From an uncultured Gammaproteobacteria bacterium (GTDB taxonomy: Bacteria; Pseudomonadota; Gammaproteobacteria; Steroidobacterales; Steroidobacteraceae), in assembly GCA_963798595.1 (NCBI GenBank), contig CAWCTM010000010.1, positions 352 to 64,351 of the forward strand: a stretch of DNA of 64,000 nucleotides, given 5' to 3'. Below, in pieces: positions 6,756 to 64,000 of this stretch. The stretch's first letter is position 1. Each line of letters begins with the position of its first letter. The position numbers were made by a program, and so were the translations under genes. The notes below the pieces were generated by a model. That model worked only from the letters and a program-made list of their open reading frames with translations, was not told the DNA's origin and did no database searches.

Positions 6756-7514
6756 TCACCAGCCGCCGAATCTGTAGTTCAGACCGAGCGTCACAAGGTT
6801 ATACGTCCGGTTATTGGACGAAATGGTGTCGCTGGCGAAGGGCGCCGGCGCCCCTGCCGCAACCGTATAGCTCACGGTGTTCATGCGCACGTAGTCATAC
6901 TGCACCCGCGCCGACCATGGCCCCGAGAATGCCCATTCGAGACCGGCGCCGACATTCCAGCCGGTGTTGGTAGATGAGGTACCGGTAAGGCCGAACGGCA
7001 CGCCCGCGATGGTAACACCGGAGTTGCTTGTGCCAATGAATGCACCGCCGCCCTTAGCGTAAAGCAGTACGCGATCCCACGCATACCCGAGGCGGGCGTC
7101 GGCAAGCGTCAGCCAGCGATTATTAACTGACACAGTTGCCGTAGTTCCTCCCGGCGCTGTTGCTGTAAGGGTGTTCGAAGCGTTCGGAAGCCAATCGAAG
7201 TCGGCTTCGGCGCCAATTACAACACCGCCCCCAAACTCCCAGTTGAAACCGACCTGGCCGCCGCCGAGAAATGAATTTTGGGTGGTGCTGGCGAAAGTGC
7301 TTCCGATCGAATCTGAAACGCCGCTGACGCCGCCAAAGCCCCAACCAAGATTAGGGCCGAGATAGAAGCCAGTCCAATTGTAGAACGACGGAGGTGGCGC
7401 CGGAATGTAAGCCGCCGGCGCTCTCGGTGGCGGAGGCGCAGGCGGAAGATCGGCCGCCAGCGCAGCGGAGCCCGCAACAAAACCGAGCGCAATGGCAACA
7501 ATCAATCGTTTCAT
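6756..7514 (-). CDS. Omp25/Omp31-family outer-membrane beta-barrel protein
   Basis: Signal peptide MKRLIVAIALGFVAGSAALAADL, a proline-rich linker, then YNWTGFYLGPNLGWGFG...GAEADFDW...RLGYAWDRVLLYAKGGGAF...GAGLEWAF...RVQYDYV...LGLNYRFGGW. ATG at 7514 is preferred over the upstream TTG. Confidence 0.85.
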   Translation of the reverse strand: MKRLIVAIALGFVAGSAALAADLPPAPPPPRAPAAYIPAPPPSFYNWTGFYLGPNLGWGFGGVSGVSDSIGSTFASTTQNSFLGGGQVGFNWEFGGGVVIGAEADFDWLPNASNTLTATAPGGTTATVSVNNRWLTLADARLGYAWDRVLLYAKGGGAFIGTSNSGVTIAGVPFGLTGTSSTNTGWNVGAGLEWAFSGPWSARVQYDYVRMNTVSYTVAAGAPAPFASDTISSNNRTYNLVTLGLNYRFGGW

Positions 7515-48280: not shown

Positions 48281-49254
48281 ATGGCCGATAGCCTCGATGC
48301 TGTGATGGAGCGGGACGGCCGAGCAGCGCCGAGGGGCATGGTGTTGATCCCGGGCGGTACATTCCGCATGGGCTCGGACAAGCATTATCCAGAGGAAGCG
48401 CCTGCGCCCATCGCGTTATGGTGAGTGACCTCTGTTAAGGCCGAACGCCAATCACAAACCGGCAATTCAAAGAGTTCGTGAAGTCAACTGGTCACAAGAC
48501 CTTCGCGGAGATCCAGCGATCCAGAAAACTATTCCCGGCGCGCTGCCGCACATGATCTTTGCCGGCTCGCTCGTGTTTAGTCCGCCGAGGCACCCCGTCG
48601 ATCTGCGTGATTGGAGCCAATGGTGGATACTGCTTAAAGGCGCGCGCCGCATGGCGCCATCCCGACGGTCCTGGAAGCAGTATCAATATCCTAGACAATC
48701 ATCCGGTCGTGCATGGGACTTACAGCGACGCCCTAGCTTATGCCGAGTGGGTTGGTAAAGAGCTTCCGACCGAAGCCGAGTGGGAATACGCCGCGCGGGG
48801 GTCTGGACGGCGCCGAATTCGCTTGGAGCGATAACTCCACGCCCGAAGGAAAGCACGCAGCAAATACCTGGCAGGGTAATTTTCCGCTGGAAAATCGCTG
48901 CGACGATGGCTTCGACGGCACCTCGCCAGTGCGGGCGTTTCCACCAAAATGGCTACGGCGTGTACGACATGATTGGCAACGTGTGGGAGTGGACAGCCGA
49001 ATTGGCATTCGCCAAAGCACGAAGCTGATGCGAAAAAAGCATGCTGCATTCCAGAAAATCCGCGGGGCTGACGTGAAGAAGATAGTTTCGATCCGCGTCA
49101 GCCCAAAATCAAAATACCGCGAAAGATAATCAAGGGCGGCTCGCATTTATGCGCGCCGAACTACTGCCGCCGTTACCGCCCGGCCGCCCGCCATGCGGAG
49201 CCGGTGGATACATCCACCAGCCATCTCGGCTTCCGATATATCAAAAGACCCTAA
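48281..49254 (+). pseudogene. formylglycine-generating enzyme, multiply frameshifted paralogue of 11052-12137
   Basis: GTFRMGSDKHYPEEAP..., [66 protein letters not shown] and [35 protein letters not shown] lie in different frames with internal stops. Confidence 0.8.
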
Positions 49255-49266
49255 AGGAGAACCACA

Positions 49267-49458
49267 ATGTTTAGTTTCACTCGCGCAATGAAATTCGGGG
49301 CCACTTGCATTGCAGTCCTGGCGCTTTTGCTGGCCGTGTCAATGCCGTCGCAAGCTCAAGAGGGAACGGTCCAGTTGCATATCGTCAAAGCTGGTTTCAT
49401 TATCGGATTTGGTGCACTCGTTTTGACGTGCTTGCCGGATATAAGAAACAGTTGTTGA
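49267..49458 (+). pseudogene. N-terminal fragment of the glycine-rich secreted-protein family
   Basis: Signal peptide plus EGTVQLHIVKAGFIIGFG, then unrelated tail and stop. The C-terminal type of the family is at 10420-10761. Confidence 0.35.
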
Positions 49459-49569
49459 GTTGAGCGGTGACGGGCCGCGGCAGAAGCGAGCGCGGCCCGA
49501 TCGTGATACTTATTGGAGCCGCGCGAAGTTTTGGCGAACGTCGGAGAGCGATTGTCTTGCGGGAAAACC

Positions 49570-49986
49570 TCAATAGCTATAGTCGAATATATCGCCGTAA
49601 CCCAGCATAGTGTCGACGCCAGGATCGATCTGGACCCAGCCGTCTGAAACCGTTCCTGGATCCGGGCCGGTTGGCATGGGAGGTGCGGCGGGTGGCGAAA
49701 TGAACGCTTGATAGTTTTTCATGGCGACTTCATTACCCACGAACACGCACCGGCAATAGTCGGGATCAGCATAGATGAAGTAGCGCATTCCGTCTTTTGT
49801 GCGCGCAACAAACTTTCGTACCGGCAACAGGCGCATTCGTTCGATTTGTGCCTGCGTCTGCGCCGGGCGCATGATGAAGCCCATGTCTTCGAGCCTCATA
49901 TCTGTACCTTCCTGCCCGGCGGCTGCCGCGCCGCCGAGCAGGCTAAGGAGGAGAGTGCCAACAGCGAAGCAACGATATGCGGCCAT
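49570..49986 (-). CDS. secreted hypothetical protein
   Basis: MAAYRCFAVGTLLLSLLGGAAAAGQ leader. 138 aa. No recognisable domain. Confidence 0.5.
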   Translation of the reverse strand: MAAYRCFAVGTLLLSLLGGAAAAGQEGTDMRLEDMGFIMRPAQTQAQIERMRLLPVRKFVARTKDGMRYFIYADPDYCRCVFVGNEVAMKNYQAFISPPAAPPMPTGPDPGTVSDGWVQIDPGVDTMLGYGDIFDYSY

Positions 49987-50254
49987 AATTCTTTCACTTT
50001 GCTCGATCGTGTCTGGCGATGAATGCCGCGACTGCCAACGCGCGGCGATGAGGCGGCACTGTATATAGACGCGATCGCAAACACTAGCATGGCTGCAACG
50101 CGCGCCTCTACGCACTCACACAAAATCCCCGCAAAGACAACGGACTACAAAGAACAACGCTACCTCTGACAGCTCTTCAAAACGTATTGGACTGGTCCAA
50201 CTTACGACTTTCAAACTCGAGCAAACTTCGCGCGCGGCATCCGGGCCGGTAGAC

Positions 50255-50272
50255 GTTGGACCACAGTCCAAT
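50255..50272. promoter_or_regulatory. palindromic motif GTTGGACCACAGTCCAAT
   Basis: Lies in the divergent intergenic region between 49570-49986 (minus strand) and 50533-51594 (plus strand). Confidence 0.5.
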
Positions 50273-50532
50273 AGGCCGAATCAAACTATTCGCTGAAACT
50301 GCTTTGCGGAATTTATCGCCCGCAACGGGAAGGAAATTCAAGCGGCGCCGCCGATGAGCGGCAAAGCCGCTGTGCAAATTTTCTCGCGCTGTGAATGACC
50401 TGTCGAATGACTGCCGCCGTCCGATCACACGCTACGCGGCACAGCCCGGAAGGAACTGAAGGCGCTAACGCTTACACAGGCTCGTCGGCAAAATCGTAAT
50501 AACTGCAACGCTCATCTTTTGGGAAGGGGACT

Positions 50533-51594
50533 ATGGAGTCCGACGATCTATCGCACGGTATCGGCCGTCGCGCGCTGATTTCAGCCCTCGTCCTGCTGCC
50601 AGCGCTGCCCACAACACTGCTTTCCTCTCCAGCCCAGGCGGAAACGACGCCGAGCACGCCCCTCGCCTCGTGGAATGAAGGCGCGTCGAAACAGGCGATC
50701 CTCGACTTCGTGCGTGCCACCACTGATCAGGGAAGCCCAAAATTCGTGGCGACTGAAGATCGCGTCGCCACTTTCGATCAGGACGGCACGCTTTGGGTCG
50801 AGCATCCAATCTATACCCAGGTGATCTACTGCCTCGACCGCGTTCCGGCAGTGGTGGAGAAAAAGCCGCAACTCAAAAATGTCGAACCGTTCAAGACCGT
50901 GCTTTCCTGCGACCGCGAGGCGATCGCGAAGCTGCCGCTGCACGACCTCGAAAAGATTCTTGCGGCGACATTGACTGGTATGCCGGTCGAGACGTTCGAA
51001 GCCGAAGTCAAAAAATGGATCGTGTCCGCGAAAAACTCGCGCTGGAAGAGGTCCTTCACCGACCTCGTCTATCAGCCGATGATCGAAGTTCTCCAATATT
51101 TACGCGCCAGCGGCTTCAAGACTTGCATCGTGACCGGTGGCGGTCAGGATTTTGTGCGCGTCTATTCGCAGCGAGTCTACGGCATTCCTCCGGAGCAGGT
51201 TGTCGGTACGATGGGAGGAACGAAATTCGGCTACAACAAGGACGGCATGCCGTTCCTGACCAAGGAGCCGAATTTACTTTTGAACAACGACAACGCCGGC
51301 AAGCCTGAGGGCATTCATCTGATGATCGGCCGACGCCCGCGCGCGGCGTTCGGCAATTCGGATGGCGACCGGGAGATGCTCGAATATACGGGCGCTGGCG
51401 ACGGCGCACGGCTGATGATGCTTGTGCTGCACGATGATGCGCACCGCGAATACGCTTACGGTCCGGCGCGCGGACTTCCCAATAGCAGGATCGGCACTTT
51501 CAGGCCTGCGCTCGACGCCGAGGCGAAAAAGGACGGCTGGAATGTCATCAGCATGAAGAATGACTGGAAACGCATTTTCGCTTTCGATGAATGA
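50533..51594 (+). CDS. HAD-superfamily hydrolase, Tat-type exported
   Basis: GIGRRALISALVLLPALP...AQAE leader. HAD motif I FDQDGTLW. Later IVTGGGQDFV and GNSDGDREML. Confidence 0.8.
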   Translation: MESDDLSHGIGRRALISALVLLPALPTTLLSSPAQAETTPSTPLASWNEGASKQAILDFVRATTDQGSPKFVATEDRVATFDQDGTLWVEHPIYTQVIYCLDRVPAVVEKKPQLKNVEPFKTVLSCDREAIAKLPLHDLEKILAATLTGMPVETFEAEVKKWIVSAKNSRWKRSFTDLVYQPMIEVLQYLRASGFKTCIVTGGGQDFVRVYSQRVYGIPPEQVVGTMGGTKFGYNKDGMPFLTKEPNLLLNNDNAGKPEGIHLMIGRRPRAAFGNSDGDREMLEYTGAGDGARLMMLVLHDDAHREYAYGPARGLPNSRIGTFRPALDAEAKKDGWNVISMKNDWKRIFAFDE

Positions 51595-51646
51595 CCGCAG
51601 TTCCGGGGTCCATATCGGGAAATCGAAGTCGTGGAGAGAACGTGAG

Positions 51647-53143
51647 ATGATCGTGAAGCAGCTGCAGGTGCTGGCATTTGCGCTCTCCGCGTTATTGGCG
51701 CAGACCGCGCTTGCGCAGACGCCGCAGGACAGCCCGCCGCCCGCCGCATCGAATCAACTGCTAAGCGGCGGCGAGCTTGAGGCTCTAGTCGCTCCGATCG
51801 CGCTTTACCCAGATGCCTTGCTGTCGGAAATCTTCATGGCCTCGACTTACCCGCTTGCAGTCGTCGAAGCTGAGCGCTGGGTCGGCAAGAACAAAAACCT
51901 CAAAGGCGATCAACTCAAGGAGGCGCTCGAAAAGCAAGGCTGGGACGACAGTGTGAAGACGCTGACGGCGACGCCGGACGTGCTCGACATGATGAGCGAC
52001 AAGCTCGATTGGACTCAAAAGCTCGGCGACGCGATCCTTGCGCAGCAGGGTGAGGTCATGGACGCGGTGCAGCGACTGCGCAAAAAAGCGCAGGCCAACA
52101 ACAAGCTGACCTCGAACCGGCAGCAGACCGTTACGACGCAGCAGGAGGACGGCAAACAGGCGATTGTCATCGCGCCAACGCAACCGGACACTATCTACGT
52201 TCCCTACTATAACCCGTCGGTGGTTTACGGCAGTTGGTCGTATCCGGCTTATCCGCCCTACTATTTTGGAGCACCCGGATACATCGCCGGCGGCGTCATC
52301 GCGACTGGTGTTGCCTTCGGCGCAGGTTACGCGCTTGGGCGTTGGGTTTCCGGCGGCTATCGCTGGGGCGGCGGCTTTAACTGGGGTGGTAACAACATCA
52401 ATATCAACCGCTCAGTCAACATCGGCAACGTCAGCATTAAAAGCAACAACTGGACGCACAATCCCGCGCACCGGCAAGGTGTGCGCTACAATAACGCCAA
52501 TGTCGCGCAGAAATTCGGCGGCAATCGCAACGCAGGCGGCGCGCAAGATCGTGCGGATTTCCGTGGCCGAACGAGTGGGGCGCAGGCGCTTGGCGGTGGT
52601 AATCGCGCCAATGCCGGCGGCGGCAACCGGGCAAACCTCGGAAATGGGGCTGGGCACCATGCGGCCAATCTCGGCGGCGGCGCGGGTAACAGGACCGCTG
52701 GCCCTCGCGGTGGTGATCGCGCGGGCGGCGGCAACGCATTGGGCAACATCGGCGCGGGCCGATCGGCGGGCCTCGATTCCGCGCGCGGCCGCGCGAGCAT
52801 CGGTGGCGCGGGCGGCGGCTTCCACAGCGGTGGCGCCAGAGCTGGTGGCGGCTCTCGGGGTGGTGGGCGGCACTCGGATGCAAGGCTAAAGCACGACATT
52901 GTCCTTCTCGGACGTCTTAACAATGGCCTTGGCTTTTATGGCTTTACCTATAATGGCGGCGAGCGGCGCTATGTCGGTGTGATGGCGCAAGAGGTACAGG
53001 CAGTGATGCCTGCTGCGGTCACGCGCGGGCGCGACGGCTATCTCCTTGTCTCCTACGACAAGCTCGGTCTGAAGTTTCAGACCTATGACGAGTGGATAGC
53101 GTCAGGTGCGCGGGTGCCAAGCGCCGCCCGAGTTTCGCATTGA
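51647..53143 (+). CDS. DUF3300 protein with Gly/Arg/Asn-rich linker and C-terminal S74-type intramolecular chaperone domain
   Basis: Signal peptide. DUF3300 core LEALVAPIALYPDALLSEIFMASTYPLAVVEAERWV...GWDDSVKTLTATPDVLDMM. Low-complexity region at 52560-52870. The end SDARLKHDIVLLGRLNNGLGFYGFTYNGGERRYVGVMAQEVQAVMPAAVTRGRDGYLLVSYDKLG (52874-53140) resembles the endosialidase/tail-fibre chaperone domain. Confidence 0.8.
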   Translation: MIVKQLQVLAFALSALLAQTALAQTPQDSPPPAASNQLLSGGELEALVAPIALYPDALLSEIFMASTYPLAVVEAERWVGKNKNLKGDQLKEALEKQGWDDSVKTLTATPDVLDMMSDKLDWTQKLGDAILAQQGEVMDAVQRLRKKAQANNKLTSNRQQTVTTQQEDGKQAIVIAPTQPDTIYVPYYNPSVVYGSWSYPAYPPYYFGAPGYIAGGVIATGVAFGAGYALGRWVSGGYRWGGGFNWGGNNININRSVNIGNVSIKSNNWTHNPAHRQGVRYNNANVAQKFGGNRNAGGAQDRADFRGRTSGAQALGGGNRANAGGGNRANLGNGAGHHAANLGGGAGNRTAGPRGGDRAGGGNALGNIGAGRSAGLDSARGRASIGGAGGGFHSGGARAGGGSRGGGRHSDARLKHDIVLLGRLNNGLGFYGFTYNGGERRYVGVMAQEVQAVMPAAVTRGRDGYLLVSYDKLGLKFQTYDEWIASGARVPSAARVSH

Positions 53144-53190
53144 GCGTCTGCATCGACGGCCTGGAATTACGGACCATTAATGAGCATGTC

Positions 53191-54144
53191 ATGAGGAAAA
53201 GCCATCCGTTGCATCACCCGCACCTCGCGCGCCTGACAGCTTCGCTGGCCGCGGCGATGATGTTTTTCGCTTCCGCATCCGTCGCAGTCGCCCAGCTGGA
53301 CTACAAGACGCCGCAAGCCGCTGCTGAAGCACTCATCGTTGCCGTCAAAGACGGCGATGCTAAAGCGATACTGGCCGTCCTCGGCCCCGACGGCGAAGAC
53401 ATAATATCTTCGGGCGACAAGGTCGCCGATGAACAGGCGCGCAAGCGCTTCATCAACTCGTATGACATCAAACATCAGATAACGATGGAAAGCGAGCACA
53501 AAGCCATCTTGATCATCGGCGACAACGATTATCCTTTCCCGATCCCGCTCGAGCGCGTCAAAACGGGCTTGTGGTCGTTCGACACCCAGGAAGGCCGCAA
53601 TGAAATCATCTATCGCCGCATCGGCCACAACGAGCTCCAGGCGATCCAGACCTGTCTCGCTTATGTCGACGCACAATACGACTACGCGGATAAGGATCGC
53701 ACGGGAGCGGGCGGCGGTGTCTATGCCCGGCGCTTCGTCAGCCAAGAGGGCAAGCATGACGGCCTTTACTGGCCAAGCGCCCAAGGCGAGGAAAGCCCGC
53801 TCGGGGAGCTATTCGCGAAGGCGTCGCATGAAGGCTATCGCCCTGACGAAGGGCGCATTCCTTTTCACGGTTATTATTACAAGATCCTGACCGGGCAGGG
53901 GCCCGCCGCGACTGGCGGGACCGCCGACTACATCGTGCACGGCAAGATGATCGGCGGTTTCGCCCTCGTTGCTTATCCGGCGGCTTATCGCAACTCCGGC
54001 GTGATGACCTTCATCGTCAATCACCAAGGCACGGTATTTCAAAAAGATCTCGGACCGGACTCTGCCGATCTCGCCGAAGCCATGACCTCTTTTAATCCCG
54101 GTGCAGGCTGGAAAAAAGTCGATGTGAACGAAGCGGCGAAATAA
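53191..54144 (+). CDS. DUF2950-family secreted protein
   Basis: Signal peptide. KTPQAAAEALIVAVKDGDAKAILAVLGP...YPFPIPL...WSFDTQEGRNEIIYRRIGHNELQAIQTCLAYVDAQYDYA...GYYYKILTGQG...GGFALVAYPAAYRNSGVMTFIVNHQGTVFQKDLG. It sits in the usual partner position after DUF3300. Confidence 0.85.
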   Translation: MRKSHPLHHPHLARLTASLAAAMMFFASASVAVAQLDYKTPQAAAEALIVAVKDGDAKAILAVLGPDGEDIISSGDKVADEQARKRFINSYDIKHQITMESEHKAILIIGDNDYPFPIPLERVKTGLWSFDTQEGRNEIIYRRIGHNELQAIQTCLAYVDAQYDYADKDRTGAGGGVYARRFVSQEGKHDGLYWPSAQGEESPLGELFAKASHEGYRPDEGRIPFHGYYYKILTGQGPAATGGTADYIVHGKMIGGFALVAYPAAYRNSGVMTFIVNHQGTVFQKDLGPDSADLAEAMTSFNPGAGWKKVDVNEAAK

Positions 54145-54184
54145 CTGGCAAGCGACTTCAAGCAAGACCCGGCAGGCAGATCGC

Positions 54185-54634
54185 ATGACAACAGCGCACA
54201 CAGGCCCGGAAAGATTTGAGGTGAGGGTGACGGCGGACAGCCACTTCGGTTGGCTCCGCACTCGATTGAGCCTGGAACGGACAATGATGTCGTGGATACG
54301 GACCGCGGTGTCGTTGATCGGTTTTGGCTTCGCCATCGTGCAGTTTTTTGAGCGGTTGCAACAAATGCCTGACGCGCGCGCGGCCAACTATCCAAAGGCC
54401 CCCGAATATCTGGGGTTGGCTCTGATCGCCAGCGGCGTACTGGCACTGCTCATTTCGATTTGGCAGTACCGCTGGGTAGTTCGCTATATGTGGGGAGCGC
54501 CATTCTCCGCCATTGCCGGCATGAGAAAGGGTGCGACAAGCGAGCAGATGCATTCGCCCGTTATCGCAATCGCGATTCTCCTCACTTGCATCGGGCTGTT
54601 TGCATTCTTCGCCGTATTGTTCCGTCAGGTTTAG
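54185..54634 (+). CDS. DUF202 (YidH-like) membrane protein
   Basis: RTRLSLERTMMSWIRTAVSLIGFGFAIVQFF, plus two further TM helices. Confidence 0.7.
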   Translation: MTTAHTGPERFEVRVTADSHFGWLRTRLSLERTMMSWIRTAVSLIGFGFAIVQFFERLQQMPDARAANYPKAPEYLGLALIASGVLALLISIWQYRWVVRYMWGAPFSAIAGMRKGATSEQMHSPVIAIAILLTCIGLFAFFAVLFRQV

Positions 54635-54693
54635 CGATTTGGTTTCCAGAACCGCGACCGATTTAGCATCCACAACTCAAAAAGGAGATTGAA

Positions 54694-56187
54694 ATGGCGA
54701 AGGAAGGCAAGCCGAACATCCTCATTCTTTGGGGTGACGACATCGGTTGGTGGAATATCAGCTATAACAATCGCGGCCAGATGGGGTACCGCACTCCAAG
54801 TATCGACCGCATCGGCAACGAAGGCGCCACGTTCACCGACTATTATGGCCAGCAGAGCTGCACCGCGGGGCGGGCTGCGTTCATTACCGGCCAAAACCCA
54901 ATCCGTACGGGCCTGACCAAGGTAGGAATGCCCGGCGCGAACGTCGGCATTCGTGCTGAGGACCCAACCATTGCAGAGTTACTGAAGCCGCTTGGCTACG
55001 CCACGGGCCAATTCGGCAAAAATCATTTGGGCGACAAGGACGAATTTTTGCCGACTATGCACGGGTTCGACGAGTTCTTCGGTAATTTGTATCACCTCAA
55101 CGCCGAGGAAGAGCCGGAGCAGCCGGACTATCCAAAAGATCCGGCGTTTAAGAAGCGATTTGGGCCTCGCGGCTTGCTTCACTCTTGGGCGGACGGTAAG
55201 GGGGGACAGAAGATCGAAGATACCGGTCCGCTGACCATAAAGCGGATGGAAACTGTTGATGAGGAGACCACCGAGCACGCGATGGCCTTCATTGAGAAAG
55301 CCAGCAAGGACGGAAGGCCGTTCTTTGTTTGGTACAACACAACTGCCATGCATTTCAGAACCCACTGCGCAGCGAAGCACAAAGGCAAAAGTGGCCAGGG
55401 GGACTATAACGACGTCATGGTCGCCCATGACGAAAACATTGGCAGGATGCTGGCCAAGCTGGACGAACTCGGCATCGCAGACGACACGATAGTTATGTAT
55501 TCGACGGACAACGGGCCGCATTACAACAGCTGGCCTGATGCCGGAATTACCCCGTTTCGCAGTGAAAAGAACACGAATTGGGAAGGCGGCTGGCGTGTGC
55601 CGATCTTTGTTCGCTGGCCAGGCAAGATCAAAGCGGGATTGGTCTTCAACGATATTGCCTCACACCAGGACTGGCTCCCAACCCTTTTGGCTGCGGCCGG
55701 TGAACCCGGTATCTCCGAAAAGCTGCTCGGCGGCCACAAGATCGGGAGCAAGACCTACAAAGTGCACATCGACGGCTTAAACATTTTGCCTTACCTGACG
55801 GGAGAGGCAAAGGAGAGTCCCAGAAAGTATTTTTTCTATTTCAGCGACGATGGTGACCTTCTGGCTATTCGCATGGGCGACTGGAAGATGGTGCTCATGG
55901 AACAGAGAGCCAAGCAGTTATTGTGCTGGTTCGAACCCTTCGTGAAACTCAGGGCGCCGAAAATGTTCAATCTGCGCCGCGATCCGTTCGAGCGGGCGGA
56001 CGAAAACTCAAACACTTATTGGGACTGGCTCATCTCGCACGCCTATTTGCTGTATGGCATGCAGGCGCTGGTGGCCCAACAGATCGATAACTTCGTAAAA
56101 TATCCGCCGCGTCAAAAACCGGCCTCATTCAACCTCGACGCGGTCCTCGCGCAAATCCAGGACGCCGGCGGCGGCGGTCAACATTGA
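54694..56187 (+). CDS. arylsulfatase (type I sulfatase) without a signal peptide
   Basis: MAKEGKPNILILWGDDIGWWN starts directly at the catalytic core after AAGGAG. Motif SCTAGRAAFITG. Paralogue of 22832-24535, which does carry a Tat leader. Confidence 0.9.
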   Translation: MAKEGKPNILILWGDDIGWWNISYNNRGQMGYRTPSIDRIGNEGATFTDYYGQQSCTAGRAAFITGQNPIRTGLTKVGMPGANVGIRAEDPTIAELLKPLGYATGQFGKNHLGDKDEFLPTMHGFDEFFGNLYHLNAEEEPEQPDYPKDPAFKKRFGPRGLLHSWADGKGGQKIEDTGPLTIKRMETVDEETTEHAMAFIEKASKDGRPFFVWYNTTAMHFRTHCAAKHKGKSGQGDYNDVMVAHDENIGRMLAKLDELGIADDTIVMYSTDNGPHYNSWPDAGITPFRSEKNTNWEGGWRVPIFVRWPGKIKAGLVFNDIASHQDWLPTLLAAAGEPGISEKLLGGHKIGSKTYKVHIDGLNILPYLTGEAKESPRKYFFYFSDDGDLLAIRMGDWKMVLMEQRAKQLLCWFEPFVKLRAPKMFNLRRDPFERADENSNTYWDWLISHAYLLYGMQALVAQQIDNFVKYPPRQKPASFNLDAVLAQIQDAGGGGQH

Positions 56188-56319
56188 TTCTTATCTTTCC
56201 CGTTCTCGCGAAGGCTCTGTCGCGCTCATCGCGACAGAGCTTCCGGGAGCGCGTGACTTTATAGATTCGGTTTCGGGCTGAAGCTGACGTGGCCGTTTCT
56301 TGAACACGCGGCGTAGAGT

Positions 56320-56997
56320 TCAGTTCTTCCTGGCGGTGTTCGGCAGATTCTCGGAATTCGTGAGAAATTTGCGTGCGATGCGCGAGGTCAATCCGCGCAT
56401 CAGCAAATACGGCACGAATGCGAGAAGCATCGCAATGATGAGCGCCTCATAAGGATAGAACGCTTTGAAGACGATGATTTGATAGATCGTATCCATCGCG
56501 AGACCCAGCAAGAGAATCCTGGCGGTAGCGTTCATTCCCTCCCGCAACCTGCCGCCGCGCTCGCGAGCGTTTGATATGATGGTCCACGCAAACGGCGAAC
56601 GGCCCGCGCGCGCGTCATAAAGACCCTCCCGGATCGCAACGATCGCGGCCATCGCCGGCTGCAGAATAAAGCGAAACCCAAGTGGCCCGCTCGGTCGTGT
56701 GAGCAGGTTATTCCAGATCCGCTCAATATTTTCGATGCTGACGCCATGCCACGCCACGCCGGCGATCATGAGCAAAATGCTGAGCGTGATGACCACTTTT
56801 GCTAACAGTGCCATCTGTACGGGGGCATCGGTCCTTTCGATGGACCCGGCCCGGCGAAGCTTAGCGGCGGCCGATTTAAACCATTTCAGCATGCGCCTGA
56901 GCCACCGTAGATTACCCCTATGAAAGAAGGACATCAGGTGCTTCTTTTGCTGTTTACACTCGTCAATAGCGCCCCCTTCAGCGCTGGGGTCGGTCAC
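56320..56997 (-). CDS. integral membrane protein, unknown function
   Basis: Four or five hydrophobic segments. A GTG at 56997 overlaps the stop of the upstream ORF (GTGA). The alternative ATG is at 56934. Confidence 0.5.
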   Translation of the reverse strand: MTDPSAEGGAIDECKQQKKHLMSFFHRGNLRWLRRMLKWFKSAAAKLRRAGSIERTDAPVQMALLAKVVITLSILLMIAGVAWHGVSIENIERIWNNLLTRPSGPLGFRFILQPAMAAIVAIREGLYDARAGRSPFAWTIISNARERGGRLREGMNATARILLLGLAMDTIYQIIVFKAFYPYEALIIAMLLAFVPYLLMRGLTSRIARKFLTNSENLPNTARKN

Positions 56998-57347
56998 TCG
57001 CCTCGGACAGAACCTTTGGCTGCCCGCTGCGAGGGCCGGCAGCCTTTAATTTCCGTTTCCATGGAGAAACTTAAGAACTTGCGAATTGCCACCAGTGCCG
57101 CCAGCAGCCCCGCTATCAAAGGCAAGAGCGGCCGTGATGGTCGAGGTCCCGCGCCGACGAGCAAATCAGTCCAAGAAAGATGCCGTGCCCGGTTTCGGAA
57201 CGGAAACGCGAAATCACCGGTCCGGGAACCGCAACGGATGAAAGTCGCCCTAGCCAAGACGATACTGCCAAGGATGATAGCCATCCCAGCGAGTTCGAGG
57301 ACATTTGCCAGCTGATCAACGAAGGCGTGGGCTTGATCTGCCAGCAC
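56994..57347 (-). CDS. DUF1622-like small membrane protein (integrity uncertain)
   Basis: N-terminus VDQLANVLELAGMAIILGSIVLA and C-terminus LLAALVAIRKFLSFSMETEI fit the family pattern. The middle is atypical and an alternative frame (57116-57319) carries IFLGL, so a compensated frameshift is possible. Confidence 0.4.
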   Translation of the reverse strand: MLADQAHAFVDQLANVLELAGMAIILGSIVLARATFIRCGSRTGDFAFPFRNRARHLSWTDLLVGAGPRPSRPLLPLIAGLLAALVAIRKFLSFSMETEIKGCRPSQRAAKGSVRGE

Positions 57348-57480
57348 GCGGCGACCTTTACGAAGTCAGATCAAGAACTCGTGCATTCTGCGCAGTCGGG
57401 CGACGCGGCTCGGCGCCTGCTCGCCGTTGTCCGACCGCGAAGCACACATCGTTTTCAAGCAAATCACCGACCGAGCGACC

Positions 57481-57498
57481 ATTGGACCGTGGTCCAAT
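57481..57498. promoter_or_regulatory. palindromic motif ATTGGACCGTGGTCCAAT, plus extra half-site GGTCCAAT at 57517-57524
   Basis: Perfect arms. Lies 186 bp upstream of the hdeA-like pair starting at 57684. Confidence 0.6.
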
Positions 57499-57683
57499 AT
57501 CGCAATGCGGGATGTCGGTCCAATGTTATTAATATACGGCATCGGCTTTACGTCGAGCGTTCGGAAATGCTTCACTGTTGGTGCGCCTTCTGACCGGTCG
57601 GCGACCTTCCTCCCGGAGGGAGTGGAGACGATCGCGAACCGTCCGCAAGGACGCGTTACGTCGCAAATCTTAGGAGACATCAA

Positions 57684-57974
57684 ATGAAAGCGTTGGCTTA
57701 CGGTCTAGCCCTGGCAGCGCTCTTGCCTGCCATTGCCCAAGCTCAGATCAAGATCGACACAAACCTAGTGACCTGCGCCCAATACCTCGCCATGCCGCCC
57801 GACCAGGCCGCTAACTTCGCCGCATGGATGAGCGGATGGTTCAATCAAAAACAGGGTTATGTCTGGATCAATCTCCAAGCTTACGAGCGAAACGTCGCGA
57901 ACGTAACGGCTTATTGTGCCGCCAACCCGAACGACACGGTGATGGCTGCGCTACAGCGCGCGACACAAAAATAA
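57684..57974 (+). CDS. HdeA/HdeB-like periplasmic protein
   Basis: Signal peptide, then IDTNLVTCAQYLAMPPDQAANFAAWMSGWFNQKQGYVWINL. Confidence 0.7.
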   Translation: MKALAYGLALAALLPAIAQAQIKIDTNLVTCAQYLAMPPDQAANFAAWMSGWFNQKQGYVWINLQAYERNVANVTAYCAANPNDTVMAALQRATQK

Positions 57975-58003
57975 ACCTCGAAAACGAACTGGGAGAATTT
58001 CCG

Positions 58004-58303
58004 ATGCGCCGAAGACTTGTTCTTGCTTCCTTGTTGCTGATTGCGGGCTCTGCACCGCCGGCGAGGGCTCAAACCATCCTCGACATGTCGCTGATCACCT
58101 GCCAGCAATATTTTGACGCTGCGCCAGAGCAGCAGAAGCTTATCGCATGGTGGATGAGGGGCTATTTCAGCGCGGCAAAAAATCTGTCGGTGATCGACTT
58201 TCGCTACGTCGACTACAACACAAAAGTTGTCACTGCCTACTGCAAGAAAAAGCAAAATAGGTACGAGACGCTTATGAGCGCAATACAACAAAACACGCGT
58301 TAG
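58004..58303 (+). CDS. HdeA/HdeB-like periplasmic protein
   Basis: GGGAGAA precedes the ATG at 58004. MRRRLVLASLLLIAGSAPPARAQTILDMSLITCQQYFDAAPEQQKLIAWWMRGYF. Confidence 0.7.
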   Translation: MRRRLVLASLLLIAGSAPPARAQTILDMSLITCQQYFDAAPEQQKLIAWWMRGYFSAAKNLSVIDFRYVDYNTKVVTAYCKKKQNRYETLMSAIQQNTR

Positions 58304-58645
58304 CCGATACGACGGCCTTTTGCGGTCTGAGATTGATAATGATCTCGACTTTCGTGGGAGGCGCCCGCACCTGAAGTGAAAAATCCAACCGGCGCCGGCG
58401 GTAGCGCGCGAGGCCGAAAAAGCGGCGGGCGAGCCCAATGACGTGTTTCGACGCTGGCCCTGGTGATCGTCCTGCTGCCGCGTTGCCGGCGTAACGTGAC
58501 AGAGCACCGCCCCCGACTGTCACGGCGCTGCTCAAAAACTCGATAAAGTTTATTCACCGCAGTTTCATCGAGATGGCGGCGCTTTTCTTGCACCACTAAT
58601 CGAGAGGGTATAACAAGGGAGATCACAATAAAAGGGAGGATCAGA

Positions 58646-58873
58646 ATGACACGGTTGATGGCTGTTGCTGGTTTTGCTTTGCTGCTCGCTACCTCGGCCC
58701 ACGCGATGACAGTCGCACCGCTTTATCAGCCGGACAGCGCGATCACAAATGTCGCCTTCGGCTGCGGTCTTGGACGGACACGCGTTGGCGGCATCTGCGT
58801 CGCTAGAACCACCATCCGCCAGGAGCGCAGGTGCGTCCGATGGACCGGACACCTTTGCGCGGCATGGTACTAA
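58646..58873 (+). CDS. small Cys-containing secreted protein
   Basis: AAGGGAGGA precedes the ATG. Leader MTRLMAVAGFALLLATSAHA. Motifs GCGLGRTRVGGICV...RCVRWTGHLC. Confidence 0.5.
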   Translation: MTRLMAVAGFALLLATSAHAMTVAPLYQPDSAITNVAFGCGLGRTRVGGICVARTTIRQERRCVRWTGHLCAAWY

Positions 58874-59618
58874 ACGCATAATTGTGCTTTAGCGCTAGTG
58901 CTAGGATTGGTGTCGCGTTCGGGGAGGAATGGACCATACGGCCCCGGCACCTCGAACGACGCCGCACAAGCTAGTCACATAAATCTAAAGTTCGCCGCAT
59001 AATGCCTGGTGTGATTTGCTAGAAGTCTCAGCGAAGTCGATGACCAGATTTGGTCCATTTGAGCCGGCTGGCAAAACGGCGAACTCTCCAAATACGCTCG
59101 GTCCTGCGCGCTCGGCGCCGGCCTCTCGCTCATGCATCCGCGACAAAGCCCTCCTAATAAATGTGGTTAAATGCCCTTGCGCCGGTTCCGCCGCCGTGGA
59201 TCGTCCCGCGCGGGTCGGCCTGCATTCGATAAATGCGCTGGCCAACTTGAGGCCTGCTGCGCAGCAGCAAAGCTCAGCAGCTCATGTCGGTTCGGGGTCA
59301 TTCACGACCGGTGCATTCAGTACGCGTGCCGATCAAATGTCCGTTGTTACTTCAACAGCGACATTATTGTTCGGCGCAGCGAAGTGACGCGGTGGGCCAC
59401 GAGCCGACATTGGGCCGCAGCAAATGAACCGTCTTGGCCGTCGGTCCCGCCTGGGATTTATCACGGTTACGGCGACCGCCACCGTGCGCTAGCAAAATAG
59501 CAATTGATTCGCGTGTGATTTCTAAAGACAGGTTGGCGAAGAACGCTTGCCTGCGTTCGCGCAAAGTTTGGCGCCAACGCATGTAGCGTCCGCCAATAAT
59601 AGGGTTTTTTTGCGAAGC

Positions 59619-59900
59619 ATGAACCTTCAACAAGGCCGGGCGAATGCGAAGTTGCAATAACCGTGCTTGCGCGATCAGAAAAGTCCCGGCGAAACTCTTG
59701 CGAGCCGCCAACAAGCGGCCGCCACGCTGGAGTATCTGAGCGAGGCGGTCAGATTTAGCCTTTCTGATGTCGGGTTACTGACAAACTTTGGAGTTATCCT
59801 CCAATCGTCAGGTCAAGCAGAGAATGCGTCGGTCAGCTTTGAAAAGGCCCCCGACATCATTCCTGATCTACCGGAAAGGCCGGCCTATTCTGGCCGCCCG
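59619..59900 (+). pseudogene. TPR-protein N-terminal remnant, in frame with the following DUF3800 gene
   Basis: MNLQQGRANAKLQ-TAA(59658-59660), then AATLEYLSEAVRFSLSDVGLLTNFGVILQSSGQAENASVSFEKAPDIIPD (TPR-like). It breaks off at the DUF3800 start. Confidence 0.35.
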
Positions 59901-60659
59901 ATGCGAGGGGGGCTGATCGTGTGGGGATATTACGATGAAAGCGGCGAATACGACGGTTGCGGCAATCTCCTAACCATGACGATTGGGGGATGCTTTGCGT
60001 CGCTTGATCATTGGCTGAAATTCGACAGTGAGTGGCAACGGGCGCTTGCGGACCACGGTCTTACTTATTTCTACATGACCGAATTTGAGACGTGGAAGCC
60101 ACCATTTGATTTTGTGCTGGATGGTGGTGGGCGCGATCAGGCCAAACACCATCGGCTCCTAAACGCCCTTCTCGACATCATGCTGGCGCATGTTGACGGG
60201 TTTTACGGTTTTGGCGCTGTCTCAATGTTCGACCCGGAGAAGCCTGAACTGAGCCATCAGATTCTCATGGAAGATTGTGTTGGGGGTGCCATCAAGAACG
60301 CCATGCTAGAAGTGGCTGACTTCTACGGCGAGCCGCTCAACATTGTGTTCGGTAAGCAGAAGCATTTTGGCCAAGGCAAAATTCGCCGATACATCGAATT
60401 TTACGATTATGGAGTTGCGGAAGGCCGCATCGAGACCCTCACGACTGCCGATCCGAAGACCACGCGGCCACTTCAAGCCGCAGATATTTTCGCCTATGAA
60501 ATGGCCCGCGCGCATCGCGCCGGTCGCCCTAAGCGCTATCCGTTTCAGCGGATCATAGACGGCTGCAAGAGCAATAATCGAAAACTCATAATGGGATGGG
60601 GTCCGATTAGGTCTAAGCGCCTCGATCCTGGCGCTTCGTCCGGGCCTGTTAGCGCCTGA
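59901..60659 (+). CDS. DUF3800-domain protein
   Basis: Family pattern: VWGYYDESGEYD at the N-terminus, W..F..EW, FYMTEF, and LQAADIFAYEMAR near the C-terminus. Confidence 0.7.
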   Translation: MRGGLIVWGYYDESGEYDGCGNLLTMTIGGCFASLDHWLKFDSEWQRALADHGLTYFYMTEFETWKPPFDFVLDGGGRDQAKHHRLLNALLDIMLAHVDGFYGFGAVSMFDPEKPELSHQILMEDCVGGAIKNAMLEVADFYGEPLNIVFGKQKHFGQGKIRRYIEFYDYGVAEGRIETLTTADPKTTRPLQAADIFAYEMARAHRAGRPKRYPFQRIIDGCKSNNRKLIMGWGPIRSKRLDPGASSGPVSA

Positions 60660-61229
60660 AACCTTTTTGAACGCCTTGTCACGCGCGATTGATTCGCCGC
60701 GCAAGAACGCTGCAAAATCTCTGGCTATTTCGAGTATTTCCCTCTTTGGTAGCGGTCCCGGTATCCTCCCGTCGCGCTGGGAGTGGACCGCTCGAAAGCG
60801 GATAGGCCGATGCGGCACGAAAAAGACTGATAGCCCTTTTTCCGCAGATGATCCTTCAGCAGCTTTTCGACCAATGACGTGAGCGAGCGTATCGCGTGAA
60901 AATTCGAATCGATTAGAACTCGGCCTAAAGCTCGGCAGACTTTTGCCGGCAGTAGCGCGGCGCGGCCGTACTCAGCTCTAGCCGGCGTCGTTGGAACAGA
61001 GCGGGCAACAAATTTTCTTCAGATGACCGCTTTGGGGGCATGAACGACCGATTTGACATGGCCGCGCGACTTCCGCTTTTCACCCAAGGGCCGGCGTTCG
61101 CTTGCTCCGCACTAAGTGGAGCGCTGGGCCATAACCAAACTCGTGCCGCAACAAATTCGGAGAGATTCCATGGGGGCATTGGTCTAGTGCTGACGTTAGA
61201 TGGGTTAGTGGTGGTTTCGACTTGCGTTG

Positions 61230-61739
61230 TCAGGCGCGCAGCTCATTGAGCAGAGCCTTGGCCTCTTTTAGATCGAGCGTGTCGAAGCCTTCAGTGAACC
61301 AGCCGTAGACCGGAGCGAGAAGATTGCGGGCCTCATCCCGCTTGCCCTGATCGCGCCACAGCCGCGCCATGCTCATCGCCGAGCGCAGTTCCCAGGACTT
61401 TGACTGCTGCTCGCGCGCAACCGCGAGCGCACGCTCGAAATATGCTTCCGCTTTTGCCACATCCCGCTCTGGCGACTTAAGTGCGATTTCCCCGGCGATG
61501 CGATGCACCTCGGCCTCGCACCATTTTTCCTTCGACCTTTCTACTTTCTCTATCGCGTCGTCAATGCAACGCCGAGCATCGTCAGACTGGCCAAGTTCCG
61601 CGTAAGCCTTTGCCAAACACCACAGATGCCACGGTTCATAAAGAGCTGCTCCAGTTGATCGAAGTGAGGCGATCCCAGAGGTGATCGCCCGAACTGCATG
61701 CGACGCTTTTCCAGTTTCCGTAAAAAGCCAACCCTGCAC
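61230..61739 (-). pseudogene. C-terminal remnant of an adenylate-cyclase/ATPase/TPR-type regulator
   Basis: TPR tail only, ending ...LLAPVYGWFTEGFDTLDLKEAKALLNELRA. Same family end as 4047-4500. No upstream domains. Confidence 0.6.
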
Positions 61740-61766
61740 TGAGGTTCCGGGGTCGGCGCGGCTCCG

Positions 61767-62009
61767 GCCACTGCATCACCACTCGGCAATACGCGCGGCT
61801 CCTTTCGGAATGGATCGCCAGCATCGGGCTCGACTCAAAGCTGTTTGGCACACATTCGCTTCGGCGAACAAAGGCAACGCTAATCTACCGTCGAACTGGA
61901 AACCTACGGGCGGTACAACTCTTGCTCGGTCACACAAAAATCGAAAGCACCGTACCTCGGCATCGAGGTCGATGCCCTACTTGCGATAGCGGAACAGGTC
62001 GACGTCTGA
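61767..62009 (+). pseudogene. tyrosine recombinase (phage-type integrase) C-terminal fragment with frameshift
   Basis: TTRQYARLLSEWIASIGLDSKLFGTHSLRRTKATLIYRRTGNLRAVQLLLGHTKIESTV, then a frame change to YLGIEVDALLAIAEQVDV-stop (62007-62009). No N-terminal or core-binding part is present. Confidence 0.65.
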
Positions 62010-62222
62010 AATACCTGGGCAGAGCGGAAGTGCTCTGCCCAGCCGCTCACGGCAGAAACGGGCCAGGAACCGACATGCAGATGGTCCTACTGACCGGAAG
62101 CGGCATCAGTTTACATAAAAGGACTTGCTCGCCGTGAGAAAAGGCCACCGCCAAGGCAGTTGCCCTCGGTTAGCATAAGTGATTACCTTGATTCCGTATC
62201 TGCGTAACGGGAGGGCTAATCA

Positions 62223-62450
62223 ATGAATTGGTTAATCGTAGTTGCCGTCGTCGGACTGATGATCGCTTCCGTGCTGCCGACGTCAGCATCGGCATTATCG
62301 TGCGTCGCTCGCAGCCCAAATGGAGCGATGGGTGCCGCCCAGGGGGTACTGCTCTTCCCTGGACGGGCTAGGGCGATTGCGCTGCGGAGATGTATCCTCA
62401 ATGGAGGAAACCTCCACGGCGCTTTCTGTCATATCATCTCGTGCGCCTAA
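62223..62450 (+). CDS. small Cys-containing secreted protein
   Basis: GGGAGGG lies 7 nt upstream of the ATG. Leader MNWLIVVAVVGLMIASVLPTSASA. Four Cys residues in 51 mature residues. Confidence 0.45.
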   Translation: MNWLIVVAVVGLMIASVLPTSASALSCVARSPNGAMGAAQGVLLFPGRARAIALRRCILNGGNLHGAFCHIISCA

Positions 62451-62605
62451 TTCCTTCAGGCCTATCCATTTCAGCGTTGACCATCTTCGCTGCCTACTCG
62501 CGCGCGCGCGAGGGGCGTGGCGGTGATGATGGTGCCGGCGGCCGGCGCGAGGTAGGGGGTTGCGCGCGACGGCAATAAGTTCAATCAACTTCGTTGAGGG
62601 GATGT

Positions 62606-64000
62606 CAATGTCGAGCTCTCTCTCCCGATTTTCCGGCTGGCGCTCGCGGTCTTTATCCCTTGGCGAGGGGCTGACGGATTCGACTGGCGCGCGGGATGGC
62701 ACCCGCGCTGATGGTGTGTTGGATCGAGGGCGGCGCCGGCTTTTTCTTTTTAGCGTTTTGGCGCGGCGGCGCCGTCGAGCTACCGGGTCGATCGCGGCCG
62801 GCACCTGGCGTCGTCGACCTTCGGCGGGGTGGGTCAATGTCGAGCTCTCTCTCCCGATTTTCCGGCTGGCGCTCGCGGTCTTTATCCCTTGGCGAGGGGC
62901 TGACGGATTCGACCGGCGCGCGGGATGGCACCCGCGCTGATGGTGTGTTGGATCGAGGGCGGCGCCGGCTTTTTTCTTTTTAGCGTTTTGCCCGGCGGCG
63001 CCGTCGAGCTACCGGGTCGATCGCGGCCGGCACCTGGCGTCGTCGACCTTCGCCGGGGGGCTCAATGTCGAGCTCTCTCTCCCGATTTTCCGGCTGGCGC
63101 TCGCGGTCTTTATCCCTTGGCGAGGGGCTGACGGATTCGACCGGCGCGCGGGATGGCACCCGCGCTGATGGTGTGTTGGATCGAGGGCGGCGCCGGCTTT
63201 TTTCTTTTTAGCGTTTTGCGCGGCGGCGCCGTCGAGCTACCGGGTCGATCGCGGCCGGCACCTGGCGTCGTCGACCTTCGCCGGGGGGCTCAATGTCGAG
63301 CTCTCTCTCCCGATTTTCCGGCTGGCGCTCGCGGTCTTTATCCCTTGGCGAGGGGCTGACGGATTCGACCGGCGCGCGGGATGGCACCCGCGCTGATGGT
63401 GTGTTGGATCGAGGGCGGCGCCGGCTTTTTTCTTTTTAGCGTTTTGCGCGGCGGCGCCGTCGAGCTACCGGGTCGATCGCGGCCGGCACCTGGCGTCGTC
63501 GACCTTCGCCGGGGGGCTCAATGTCGAGCTCTCTCTCCCGATTTTCCGGCTGGCGCTCGCGGTCTTTATCCCTTGGCGAGGGGCTGACGGATTCGACCGG
63601 CGCGCGGGATGGCACCCGCGCTGATGGTGTGTTGGATCGAGGGCGGCGCCGGCTTTTTTCTTTTTAGCGTTTTGCTTGGCGGCGCCGTCGAGCTACCGGG
63701 TCGATCGCGGCCGGCACCTGGCGTCGTCGACCTTCGCCGGGGGGCTCAATGTCGAGCTCTCTCTCCCGATTTTCCGGCTGGCGCTCGCGGTCTTTATCCC
63801 TTGGCGAGGGGCTGACGGATTCGACCGGCGCGCGGGATGGCACCCGCGCTGATGGTGTGTTGGATCGAGGGCGGCGCCGGCTTTTTTCTTTTTAGCGTTT
63901 TGCTTGGCGGCGCCGTCGAGCTACCGGGTCGATCGCGGCCGGCACCTGGCGTCGTCGACCTTCGCCGGGGTGGCTCAATGTCGAGCTCTCTCTCCCGATT
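62606..64000. repeat. tandem array of a 228/229-bp unit, 6 complete copies plus a partial one, continuing beyond the window
   Basis: The anchor CAATGTCGAGCTC occurs at 62606, 62835, 63063, 63291, 63519, 63747 and 63976. Units differ by only a few substitutions and a T5/T6 run. Confidence 0.95.

Follow-up and report, generated by a model that had tools for sequence, protein, structure and literature searches.

The window analysed here, a stretch of 64,000 nucleotides of contig CAWCTM010000010.1 (assembly GCA_963798595.1, an uncultured gammaproteobacterium), closes on its right side with a tandem array of near-identical units of about 228 bp. The array, its relatives in other genomes, and the gene of a small replication-type protein (rep) that adjoins those relatives are the subject of this work. 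To the left of the array, the window carries a DUF3800 gene and an integrase remnant, both present as the initial annotation had reported, and a TPR gene (Table 1). As for the array itself, Tandem Repeats Finder gave it a period of 228 with 99% matches and a score of 2702, and its copies reach position 64000 and run off the window edge, in agreement with the first description; the start given there, ~62606, holds for the array proper but not for the repeat field as a whole, which opens earlier with a diverged leader unit.

Regarding the layout, a 26-nt anchor recurs at positions 62605, 62834, 63062, 63290, 63518, 63746 and 63975, and the periods derived from it (229, 228, 228, 228, 228 and 229 bp) are those already proposed. 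Identity inside the array is 98.5%, and the differences among units were also found as listed before: the variable spots GTTTTGGCGCGG / GCCCGG / GCGCGG / GCTTGG, a run of five versus six T (T5 and T6), and the variants at the junctions. The same applies to the perfect hairpin, which occurs once in every unit, and to the two CGGCGCCG octamers that surround the T-rich tract of each unit. The leader holds CTCGCGCGCGCGCGAGG, GATGATGG and GAGGTAGGGGGT; homologues of it lie directly upstream of the arrays in L005, L010 and L042 (L numbers denote the contigs compared with the window), a weaker likeness exists in L017 and L003, and it is also found in L001, a contig of a sister strain that has no array. 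In the remainder of the window (positions 1-62400) no array units, and no units of the dispersed D-type described below, were found. An arrangement of the type of clustered regularly interspaced short palindromic repeats was not found in the array, where whole 228-bp units are 99% identical and there are no spacers.

Table 1. Positions of the repeat field, its internal motifs and the adjacent genes in the window
Feature	Position	Strand	Remarks
DUF3800 gene	59667-60659		330 aa; PF12686, 22.2 bits; intact
TPR gene	61230-61739		169 aa; intact
Integrase remnant	~61760-62010		frameshifted C-terminus; PF00589, E=1e-9
75-aa gene	62223-62450	+	called in L001
Charged 180-aa open reading frame	62295-62837	-	no Pfam match; overlaps the 75-aa gene; probably spurious
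Leader, diverged 131-bp unit (L-type)	62474-62604	+	opens the repeat field; ends GAGGGGA just before array unit 1
Tandem array (A-type)	62605-64000	+	6.1 copies of 228/229 bp; off window edge
Module 1 of a representative unit, GCTCTCTCTCCCGATTTTCCGG	63072-63093	+	in every unit; common to the dispersed D-type element
Perfect 7-bp hairpin GCGCGGG-ATGGCA-CCCGCGC	63146-63165	+	once per unit; not conserved in the family
T-rich tract (63198-63209, TTTTTTCTTTTT) between two CGGCGCCG octamers	63188-63231	+	
12-mer AGCTACCGGGTC (family consensus AGSTAYSGGGTY)	63235-63246	+	in every unit type; candidate Rep recognition or nick site

The array had been described as non-coding and unusual, with all six frames closed, and stops were indeed counted in every frame of each unit; the consensus unit has 1, 1 and 1 on the plus strand and 2, 1 and 1 on the minus strand. 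Six-frame closure of this kind occurs in 5% of dinucleotide shuffles, and is thus mildly unusual, not remarkable. Unit 1 differs from the others by its T5 run and an extra G ~20 nt apart, a locally compensating pair of indels; this compensated frameshift removes the minus-strand TAA present in units 2-6, and therefore the charged open reading frame (ORF) of 180 aa opens. The ORF exists where it had been placed, but it is probably spurious, because it has no family match and overlaps a plus-strand gene called in L001; in that contig its own version is shortened to 97 aa.

A protein search with a chimeric query of all six unit frames against a collection of 5.8 billion proteins found two very long ORFs, P0001 (1341 aa; L003, 10001-14026) and P0002 (1200 aa; L004, 10001-13603). 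Related arrays are present on both contigs: L003 has 23 copies, mainly of 231 bp, that run off the contig end, and L004 has a complete array of 15.0 copies of 230 bp. The initial annotation had held that relatives with the repeat as an uninterrupted coding region would make the array simply a decayed repeat-protein gene. Taken literally, L003 and L004 are such relatives, but their ORFs lie on the plus strand, opposite to the 180-aa ORF, and pass through two or three frames, their segments alternating among plus frames 0, 1 and 2 of the window unit so that all three are traversed. In L004 the period of 230 bp forces the ORF through all three frames. That both arrays are open follows from the way they were found, since a protein database can contain open arrays only; among shuffled units, ~3% have no stop in any of the three plus frames. 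P0001 and P0002 also carry faint Pfam labels (AAA_lid_4, NOMO_3rd, UBAP2-Lig and DUF3339). The two proteins are annotation artefacts, produced by read-through of non-coding arrays. A look-up of the ORFs internal to the array (68 aa and 59 aa) and of the 75-aa gene of the window gave none on record.

A frame-independent search was made with the exact DNA pattern CTCTCTCTCCCGAWTTTCCGGCTG in GTDB genomes and JGI metagenomes, and it retrieved 15 loci from the former and 34 from the latter. Ten related arrays in other contigs gave periods of mostly 230 bp, with 229, 228, 231 and 220 bp also found, and the ORFs of L003 and L004 are the only long ones among them; of the arrays found by DNA, most have a period of 230 bp and most have stops in every frame of both strands. 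Therefore, no reading frame is conserved, and the argument that a period divisible by three points to a repeat protein does not stand, given that the commonest period of the family is 230 bp. A recently inactivated repeat-protein gene would account for 228 being 3 x 76, for the ORF opened by unit 1 and for the long ORFs of L003 and L004; against it are the periods of 220, 229, 230 and 231 bp, those of 196, 256, 309 and 361 bp in the rep-linked arrays described below, the lack of a family match for the 180-aa ORF, and the strand and frame changes just mentioned, which together leave this explanation with almost no probability. Judged from its sequence, the array of the window is non-coding DNA, not a decayed repeat-protein gene.

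The family is one of uncultured soil Alphaproteobacteria. The genomes with matches are metagenome-assembled genomes (MAGs): MFD isolates that bear the label "uncultured Alphaproteobacteria bacterium" and a single "Xanthobacteraceae bacterium". Danish soils and sediments, sequenced with Nanopore technology, were the source of the MFD genomes (PMC12313526). Several genomes have more than one array: in MFD00991.bin.1.39 two contigs hold at least 14 and at least 19 copies, and MFD05521.bin.1.111 has arrays on two contigs and a further partial unit with its own rep; one MAG contains at least three loci with rep plus repeats. Contig ends are where many of the short-read matches fall, which would be expected of arrays that break assemblies. 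The initial annotation had raised the concern that the array could be an assembly artefact; the assembler would then have collapsed or expanded a repeat. Its copy number does rest on the assembly and is to be read as an assembly value, and the T5/T6 differences could be homopolymer errors; the tandem layout, instead, recurs in more than ten independent contigs from different samples and two sequencing technologies. It is no Nanopore artefact, because the Illumina contigs L037 and L050 carry 2-3 tandem units, and Illumina contigs with 2-3 units are found joined to the rep flank. An assembly artefact is accordingly extremely unlikely.

Within-array identity was 98.5-99.9% in six of the seven arrays measured, the seventh being L003 with 95.5% (it contains sub-variants), while arrays of different genomes are 91.5-97.9% identical, the same range as that of the relatives compared with the window array. 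Moreover, two arrays of one MAG are 99.8% alike, with adjoining genes that are 60-92% alike. Since identity within arrays exceeds that between genomes, the arrays, at the level of their sequences, display concerted evolution.

As for the hairpin, it is intact in 67 units across 16 loci, and it is cut to 2-4 pairs by one-sided changes in all 15 copies of L004 and in 22 copies of L003; because of these one-sided changes, it is under no compensatory constraint. This bears on the proposal, made at first sight of the array, that each unit is a small-RNA gene or a promoter. The palindromes and the T-tract of the unit would suit such a role, but both strands of the unit fold no better than shuffles (z = -0.25 and -1.17), no sigma-70-like promoter or terminator sites were found in the array, and the Rfam 15 covariance models at gathering score gave no match in it; in addition, the hairpin is not kept by compensatory change, and the terminator of rep sits between rep and the array. 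One small-RNA gene or promoter per unit is therefore very unlikely.

The context that matters most is that of the right end of the arrays, which is visible in eight A-type arrays (L004, L005, L009, L013, L015, L017, L018 and L050). All eight stop within the T-tract, at GGCGGCGCCGGCTTTT, and then run into the same flank, where ~80 nt further on is the 3' end of an ORF of 181-182 aa on the opposite strand, the rep gene. It is full-length in six of the eight (L005, L009, L013, L015, L017 and L018); in L050 the contig ends inside it, and in L004 only its 3' end is left. Between rep and the array, the flank holds a minus-strand hairpin that resembles a terminator (L018, 739 to 715). Single units of the dispersed type also have rep nearby: the gene adjoins one in L040, lies 590 nt from one in L036, and abuts one in a 5'-truncated form in L043. 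Just upstream of rep there is, at several loci, a conserved ORF of 182 aa that has no family match (L018, 1650-2198, minus strand; also L005, L009, L013 and L045), with identities of 83-92% between loci; in L045 a fragment of an A-type unit abuts this upstream ORF, in the orientation opposite to the downstream array.

Regarding the nature of the protein, Rep contains the motifs TLTLK, WHIHCAIE and YMLKD, and the closest member matched PF23343 (Replication-associated protein ORF2/G2P) with E=9e-6 and 26.3 bits. Across the family, PF23343 was the sole Pfam match in 34 of 35 members scanned, down to 36% identity, with a best E-value of 2.3e-9. Residues N62, E84, W130, Y153 and K160 are invariant, and H106 and H108 nearly so. 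An AlphaFold (AF2) model built from a diverse alignment reached a predicted local distance difference test (pLDDT) score of 84.3 and a predicted template modelling score of 0.80; an earlier AF2 model from a shallow alignment had a pLDDT of 53, and the search of the Protein Data Bank (PDB) made with it had no meaning. Compared with the predicted viral structures of BFVD, the good model had 70 matches with E<=1e-3, of which those that carry a name are Microviridae replication initiators; among weak ferredoxin-like PDB matches (E ~1e-2) were parvovirus NS1, adeno-associated virus Rep and circovirus Rep. Profile searches of Rep against PDB sequences gave nothing useful. On account of the PF23343 matches, the HxH and tyrosine motifs and the structural likeness to Microviridae initiators, Rep is taken to be a small single-tyrosine HUH protein of the rolling-circle type; a gene with HxH and a catalytic tyrosine is thus adjacent to the array at the related loci, and not within the window.

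The family is large, with 992 clusters at 90% identity in a word-indexed search and 976 at 50% identity with E<=1e-3, and it is very abundant in soil and peat metagenomes, where many members are on contigs of ~1 kb. The sole name given to any member, in any source, is "hypothetical protein". No relatives were found in PLSDB, INPHARED or IMG/VR (in the latter, close relatives were sought), nor did NCBIfam or PADLOC models match. A BLASTN search with two units against PLSDB plasmids and INPHARED phages also gave no match.

Because all eight visible right ends of related arrays have the rep flank, a rep gene is predicted, with good confidence from this analogy, just beyond position 64000 of the window on the minus strand. 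The continuation would read as the array end GGCGGCGCCGGCTTTT, ~80 nt with the hairpin CAAGGCG...CGCCCTTG, and a minus-strand rep of 181-182 aa.

The association was then put to a blind test, using four Rep homologues (81-90% identical) chosen solely for their long contigs. In all four, a tandem array begins ~80 nt after the rep stop codon, and its period is 361 bp in L054 (6.1 copies), 256 bp in L055 (5.5 copies), 196 bp in L056 (at least 2.4 copies, running off the contig) and 309 bp in L057 (5.8 copies); L054 has, in addition, two 208-bp units past its array. The window unit has no BLAST similarity with the 256- and 361-bp units, and the comparison with those of 196 and 309 bp was by motif only. 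Nevertheless, all tandem unit types contain three modules, which keep a constant order and lie on the strand antisense to rep: first, CTCTC...TTTTCC with a GC-rich palindrome, which is the counterpart of module 1 in the 196-, 256-, 309- and 361-bp units; next, a T-rich tract (ATTTCTTTTT-like); and then, 33-114 nt past the T-tract in all unit types, the 12-mer AGSTAYSGGGTY or a close variant of it. The arrays of L011, L015 and L016 start 1 to 11 nt upstream of this 12-mer.

The genes around the rep-array pair differ from locus to locus. L054, L055 and L057 have it among housekeeping or unrelated genes, while the neighbours at other loci are island-like and include a TerS-like helix-turn-helix (HTH) protein (phrog_4044, E ~1e-7), HTH plus ImmA/IrrE, PD-Lambda-2 defence genes and integrases. 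In L013, two genes ~3 kb from rep (4915-7270) match PD-Lambda-2_B (E=6e-78) and PD-Lambda-2_C (E=5e-42), which suggests that the variable region of this contig holds an anti-phage defence system. Such neighbourhoods, the adjacent Rep, and the integrase remnant left of the array in the window are the reasons to consider the array as part of an integrated rolling-circle replicon or a satellite-like island, namely its replication origin, its incompatibility region or its packaging region, with units acting as oversized iterons that would bind Rep or a TerS-like protein upon induction of the island. This explanation is improbable: the pairs of L054, L055 and L057 share no island, the block conserved across loci consists of rep and repeats only, iterons measure 10-22 bp versus the 196-361 bp of these units, and, as said, PLSDB, INPHARED and IMG/VR hold no Rep relative. 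Among the three readings offered initially, the iteron-like one came nearest, in that a Rep-type initiator gene adjoins the related arrays, but the rest of a plasmid iteron or centromere array (sopC/parS type), with its short repeats of 10-45 bp, did not appear: the units measure 228 bp, the contigs reach 1.4 Mb, no Par or winged-helix Rep domain was present among the neighbours scanned, and neither the unit nor Rep has a PLSDB match.

Units also exist outside the long arrays. The D-type element, of ~208-247 bp, has its first 65 nt and the other motifs in common with the window unit, and in many contigs it has a sharp start, CTCTACGCCGTGCTCTCTCTCCCGAATTTCCGG, beside unrelated flanks; in the same manner, about ten solo or partial A-type units begin at GCTCAATGTCG beside unrelated flanks. 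The 3' ends of D-type elements (...GCGGCGGGG) are almost always followed by a unit in head-to-tail orientation, of the same or of a different type, and the leader of the window is one such diverged unit, chained ahead of the array. At one locus, represented in several samples by L029, L032, L038 and L039, the 5' end of a D-type element faces an inverted copy of itself ~70 nt away (ctctacgccgtgCTCTCTCTCCCGA...tcgggagagagagcacggcgtagag); head-to-head units thus exist as well, in a configuration like that of miniature inverted-repeat transposable elements.

As for the sister strain, L001 was found through an identical sulfatase gene, a look-up that returned only this contig and L002, a fragment of 3.6 kb. 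It is 99.92% identical to window positions 48490-62603 and departs from the window exactly at the junction between leader and array, after which it continues with the 3' part of an IS110-family transposase gene and has no array. This near-identical flank, diverging at the leader/unit-1 junction, implies a recent gain or loss: going by the two sequences, the array is a recent presence/absence difference with its breakpoint at a unit boundary. An element of the IS110 family (DEDD_Tnp_IS110 plus Transposase_20, 414 aa) also abuts the left end of the array in L004 (8655-9899), joined inside the T-tract, and a 96% identical copy of it lies in L021 (451-1692), 2 kb from a D-type unit; the IS110 gene of L001 differs from this element and is truncated. 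IS110 was considered as a partner of the arrays and rejected as an incidental insertion, given that no other array has one and that the L021 copy is 2 kb away.

Taken together, these observations could be read in two main ways. One is that the units form a host repeat family of their own (REP/BIME- or RIME-like), grown by slippage and unequal crossing-over, and that the Rep cassette of ~660 bp is a minimal insertion sequence with a preference for the repeats as its target, so that the arrays would not be the work of Rep. The conserved Rep block has sharp limits, as an insertion would: it begins ~35 nt before the ATG and stops ~15 nt beyond the hairpin; the cassette abuts different positions of different unit types, and similar Reps are found beside different units. 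In L040 the cassette cuts a D-type unit at position 82, with a weakly D-like sequence that resumes upstream of rep (seen by eye, below the BLAST threshold), many D-type units have no rep within the contig sequence examined, and the IS110 element of L004 likewise inserted at an array edge. Nonetheless, the distance of the array from rep and its orientation are constant at every locus examined, including the four blind picks; an insertion should leave array on both sides of the cassette, and the class-1 loci L005, L009, L013 and L018 have none upstream of rep; finally, the 12-mer was sought inside the cassette and is absent. This explanation is, on balance, rather unlikely.

The other way, preferred here with a probability of about 0.5, is that the array is satellite-like DNA that serves in cis as the repeat field of a small mobile module, and that rolling-circle events driven by Rep have amplified and homogenised it; rep, which encodes the HUH protein of 181-182 aa, would be the module's only constant gene. 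In the orientation of the window, the module would comprise the leader, N tandem units, a last unit cut in the T-tract, ~80 nt with the terminator-like hairpin, and rep on the minus strand. Rep would nick one strand at a fixed site of each unit, for which the candidates are the unit junction, GGGG followed by CTCAATG, or the 12-mer AGCTACCGGGTC; replication from the nick would displace the strand up to the matching site of the next unit, where the joining reaction of Rep would close a single-stranded circle of unit length. A precedent is RstA, which with two tandem Ig-1 sites yields a circular single strand, a reaction reconstituted in E. coli (PMC8265649). Re-joining of such a circle at a unit boundary would add units head to tail, and the outcome would be growth and homogenisation of the array, chains of mixed units, and solo units seeded elsewhere. 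What the sequences show directly is the physical link with its constant spacing and direction, the common order of the motifs, the homogeneity inside arrays, the difference in unit between Rep lineages, the head-to-tail chains, and the presence or absence of the array in near-identical strains; nicking, circle formation and re-insertion are ascribed to Rep tentatively, by analogy with RstA.

Several points weigh against a Rep-built array. Nick sites of HUH Reps usually lie in or beside a conserved hairpin, but the 12-mer is not in one, no conserved hairpin was found in the units, and L003 and L004 have lost the perfect one. Homogenisation of the arrays could also come from ordinary unequal crossing-over, with no Rep involved. 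The position within the unit at which the cassette is joined varies among unit types, and Reps that are ~90% identical stand beside unrelated unit types (L009 and L054), a pattern that fits re-association as well as co-evolution. The PF23343 score of the closest Rep is just below the curated cut-off of 27.8 bits, and the PDB fold search with the Rep model gave nothing at E<=1e-3. Finally, rep is outside the window, and a search for a public contig extending the window array found none.

The rest of the window holds some further features. A segment of ~1.29 kb (46822-48111) is absent from L001, which has in turn, nearby, ~1.3 kb (2496-3796) with a Transposase_mut gene of the IS256 type that is absent from the window; with the array, the two strains thus differ in a second place. 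The DUF3800 and TPR genes, intact in the window, are each called in two pieces in L001 (14974-15967 and 16537-17096) despite a DNA identity of 99.9%; either frameshifts or homopolymer errors in one assembly account for the split calls. At 57684-58303 there are two adjacent small secreted paralogues of the HdeA family (PF06411 on the matching L001 genes), the second of which has 99 aa as called in L001 and lies inside a 159-aa ORF (57824-58303); further HdeA-family genes follow in L001 past the breakpoint. A separate tandem repeat of 18 bp is present at 58610-58651 (2.3 copies, score 56), unrelated to the array. Rfam matched the window once only, with a partial tRNA at 5852-5907 (30.9 bits, covering model positions 9-63 of 71). 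ARAGORN did not call it, and it may be what remains of a tRNA at a former integration site.

Regarding the meaning of these findings, bacteria seldom have non-coding tandem arrays that are both long and homogenised, and usually no candidate enzyme accounts for them, while here a single small HUH gene accompanies a whole family of such arrays. Were the arrays built by Rep, the module would offer a simple, testable system for the birth, homogenisation and turnover of satellite DNA. The contigs with a rep-array pair, up to 1.4 Mb long, are most likely chromosomal. Literature searches on PF23343, and on HUH proteins with tandem arrays in prokaryotes, yielded no description of the module, and there is a fair chance that small Rep plus array is a distinct class of element. 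It is possible, though doubtful, that this is a previously undescribed class of bacterial mobile or satellite element in which single-stranded DNA circles of unit length (~200-360 nt) are spun off a chromosomal array and re-inserted head to tail. Were it so, the arrays would be fast-evolving, lineage-specific "bacterial satellites", a prokaryotic counterpart of the satellites derived from Helitrons, and the circles might have a function of their own, for instance as decoys, guides or primers. On the practical side, the arrays break short-read assemblies and seed public protein databases with spurious "proteins" of 1,200-1,300 aa, such as P0001 and P0002.

Among known systems, iteron arrays at plasmid origins and the "bind" repeats in the double-strand origins of rolling-circle plasmids resemble the module because they are direct repeats immediately beside the initiator gene. 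Iterons number 3-10; the units described here are ten times longer and far more numerous. REPs are palindromes of ~20-40 nt that flank their gene in inverted orientation, while these units of 196-361 bp are direct tandem repeats, found solely on the 3' side of the gene. RAYTs, besides, belong to the IS200/IS605 TnpA (Y1_Tnp) family, and here PF23343 is the only Pfam match among 35 members. What the REP/REPIN-RAYT system, the known case of a domesticated HUH gene paired with repeats, does have in common with the module is a small single-domain HUH/Y1 protein tied to genome-specific non-coding repeats that are also dispersed (PMC8266576).

Read-through of Helitrons and IS91 gives head-to-tail copies, as in the arrays. 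The transposases of IS91/ISCR and Helitrons are larger (Y2, with a zinc finger or helicase), whereas Rep has 181-182 aa, a single domain and one invariant tyrosine. Moreover, IS91/ISCR, Helitrons and IS200/IS605, which are the described Rep-class HUH-mobilised elements (10.1101/2022.12.15.520654), differ from the present case in that here the repeated unit has no gene; if Rep builds the arrays, they would constitute a fourth kind of Rep-mobilised element beside these three.

The proposed mechanism has its counterpart in CTX-phi/RS1 and RstA of Vibrio cholerae, where an HUH-type initiator acts on directly repeated chromosomal sites, and nicking at one with termination at the next frees a circular single strand, which makes the tandem layout a requirement for function (PMC8265649). 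In that system the repeat is a 7-kb phage, or RS1, that carries genes and is present in few copies; in the family described here, gene-less units of 196-361 bp are repeated up to 23 times or more, and the circles would be produced from these much shorter units.

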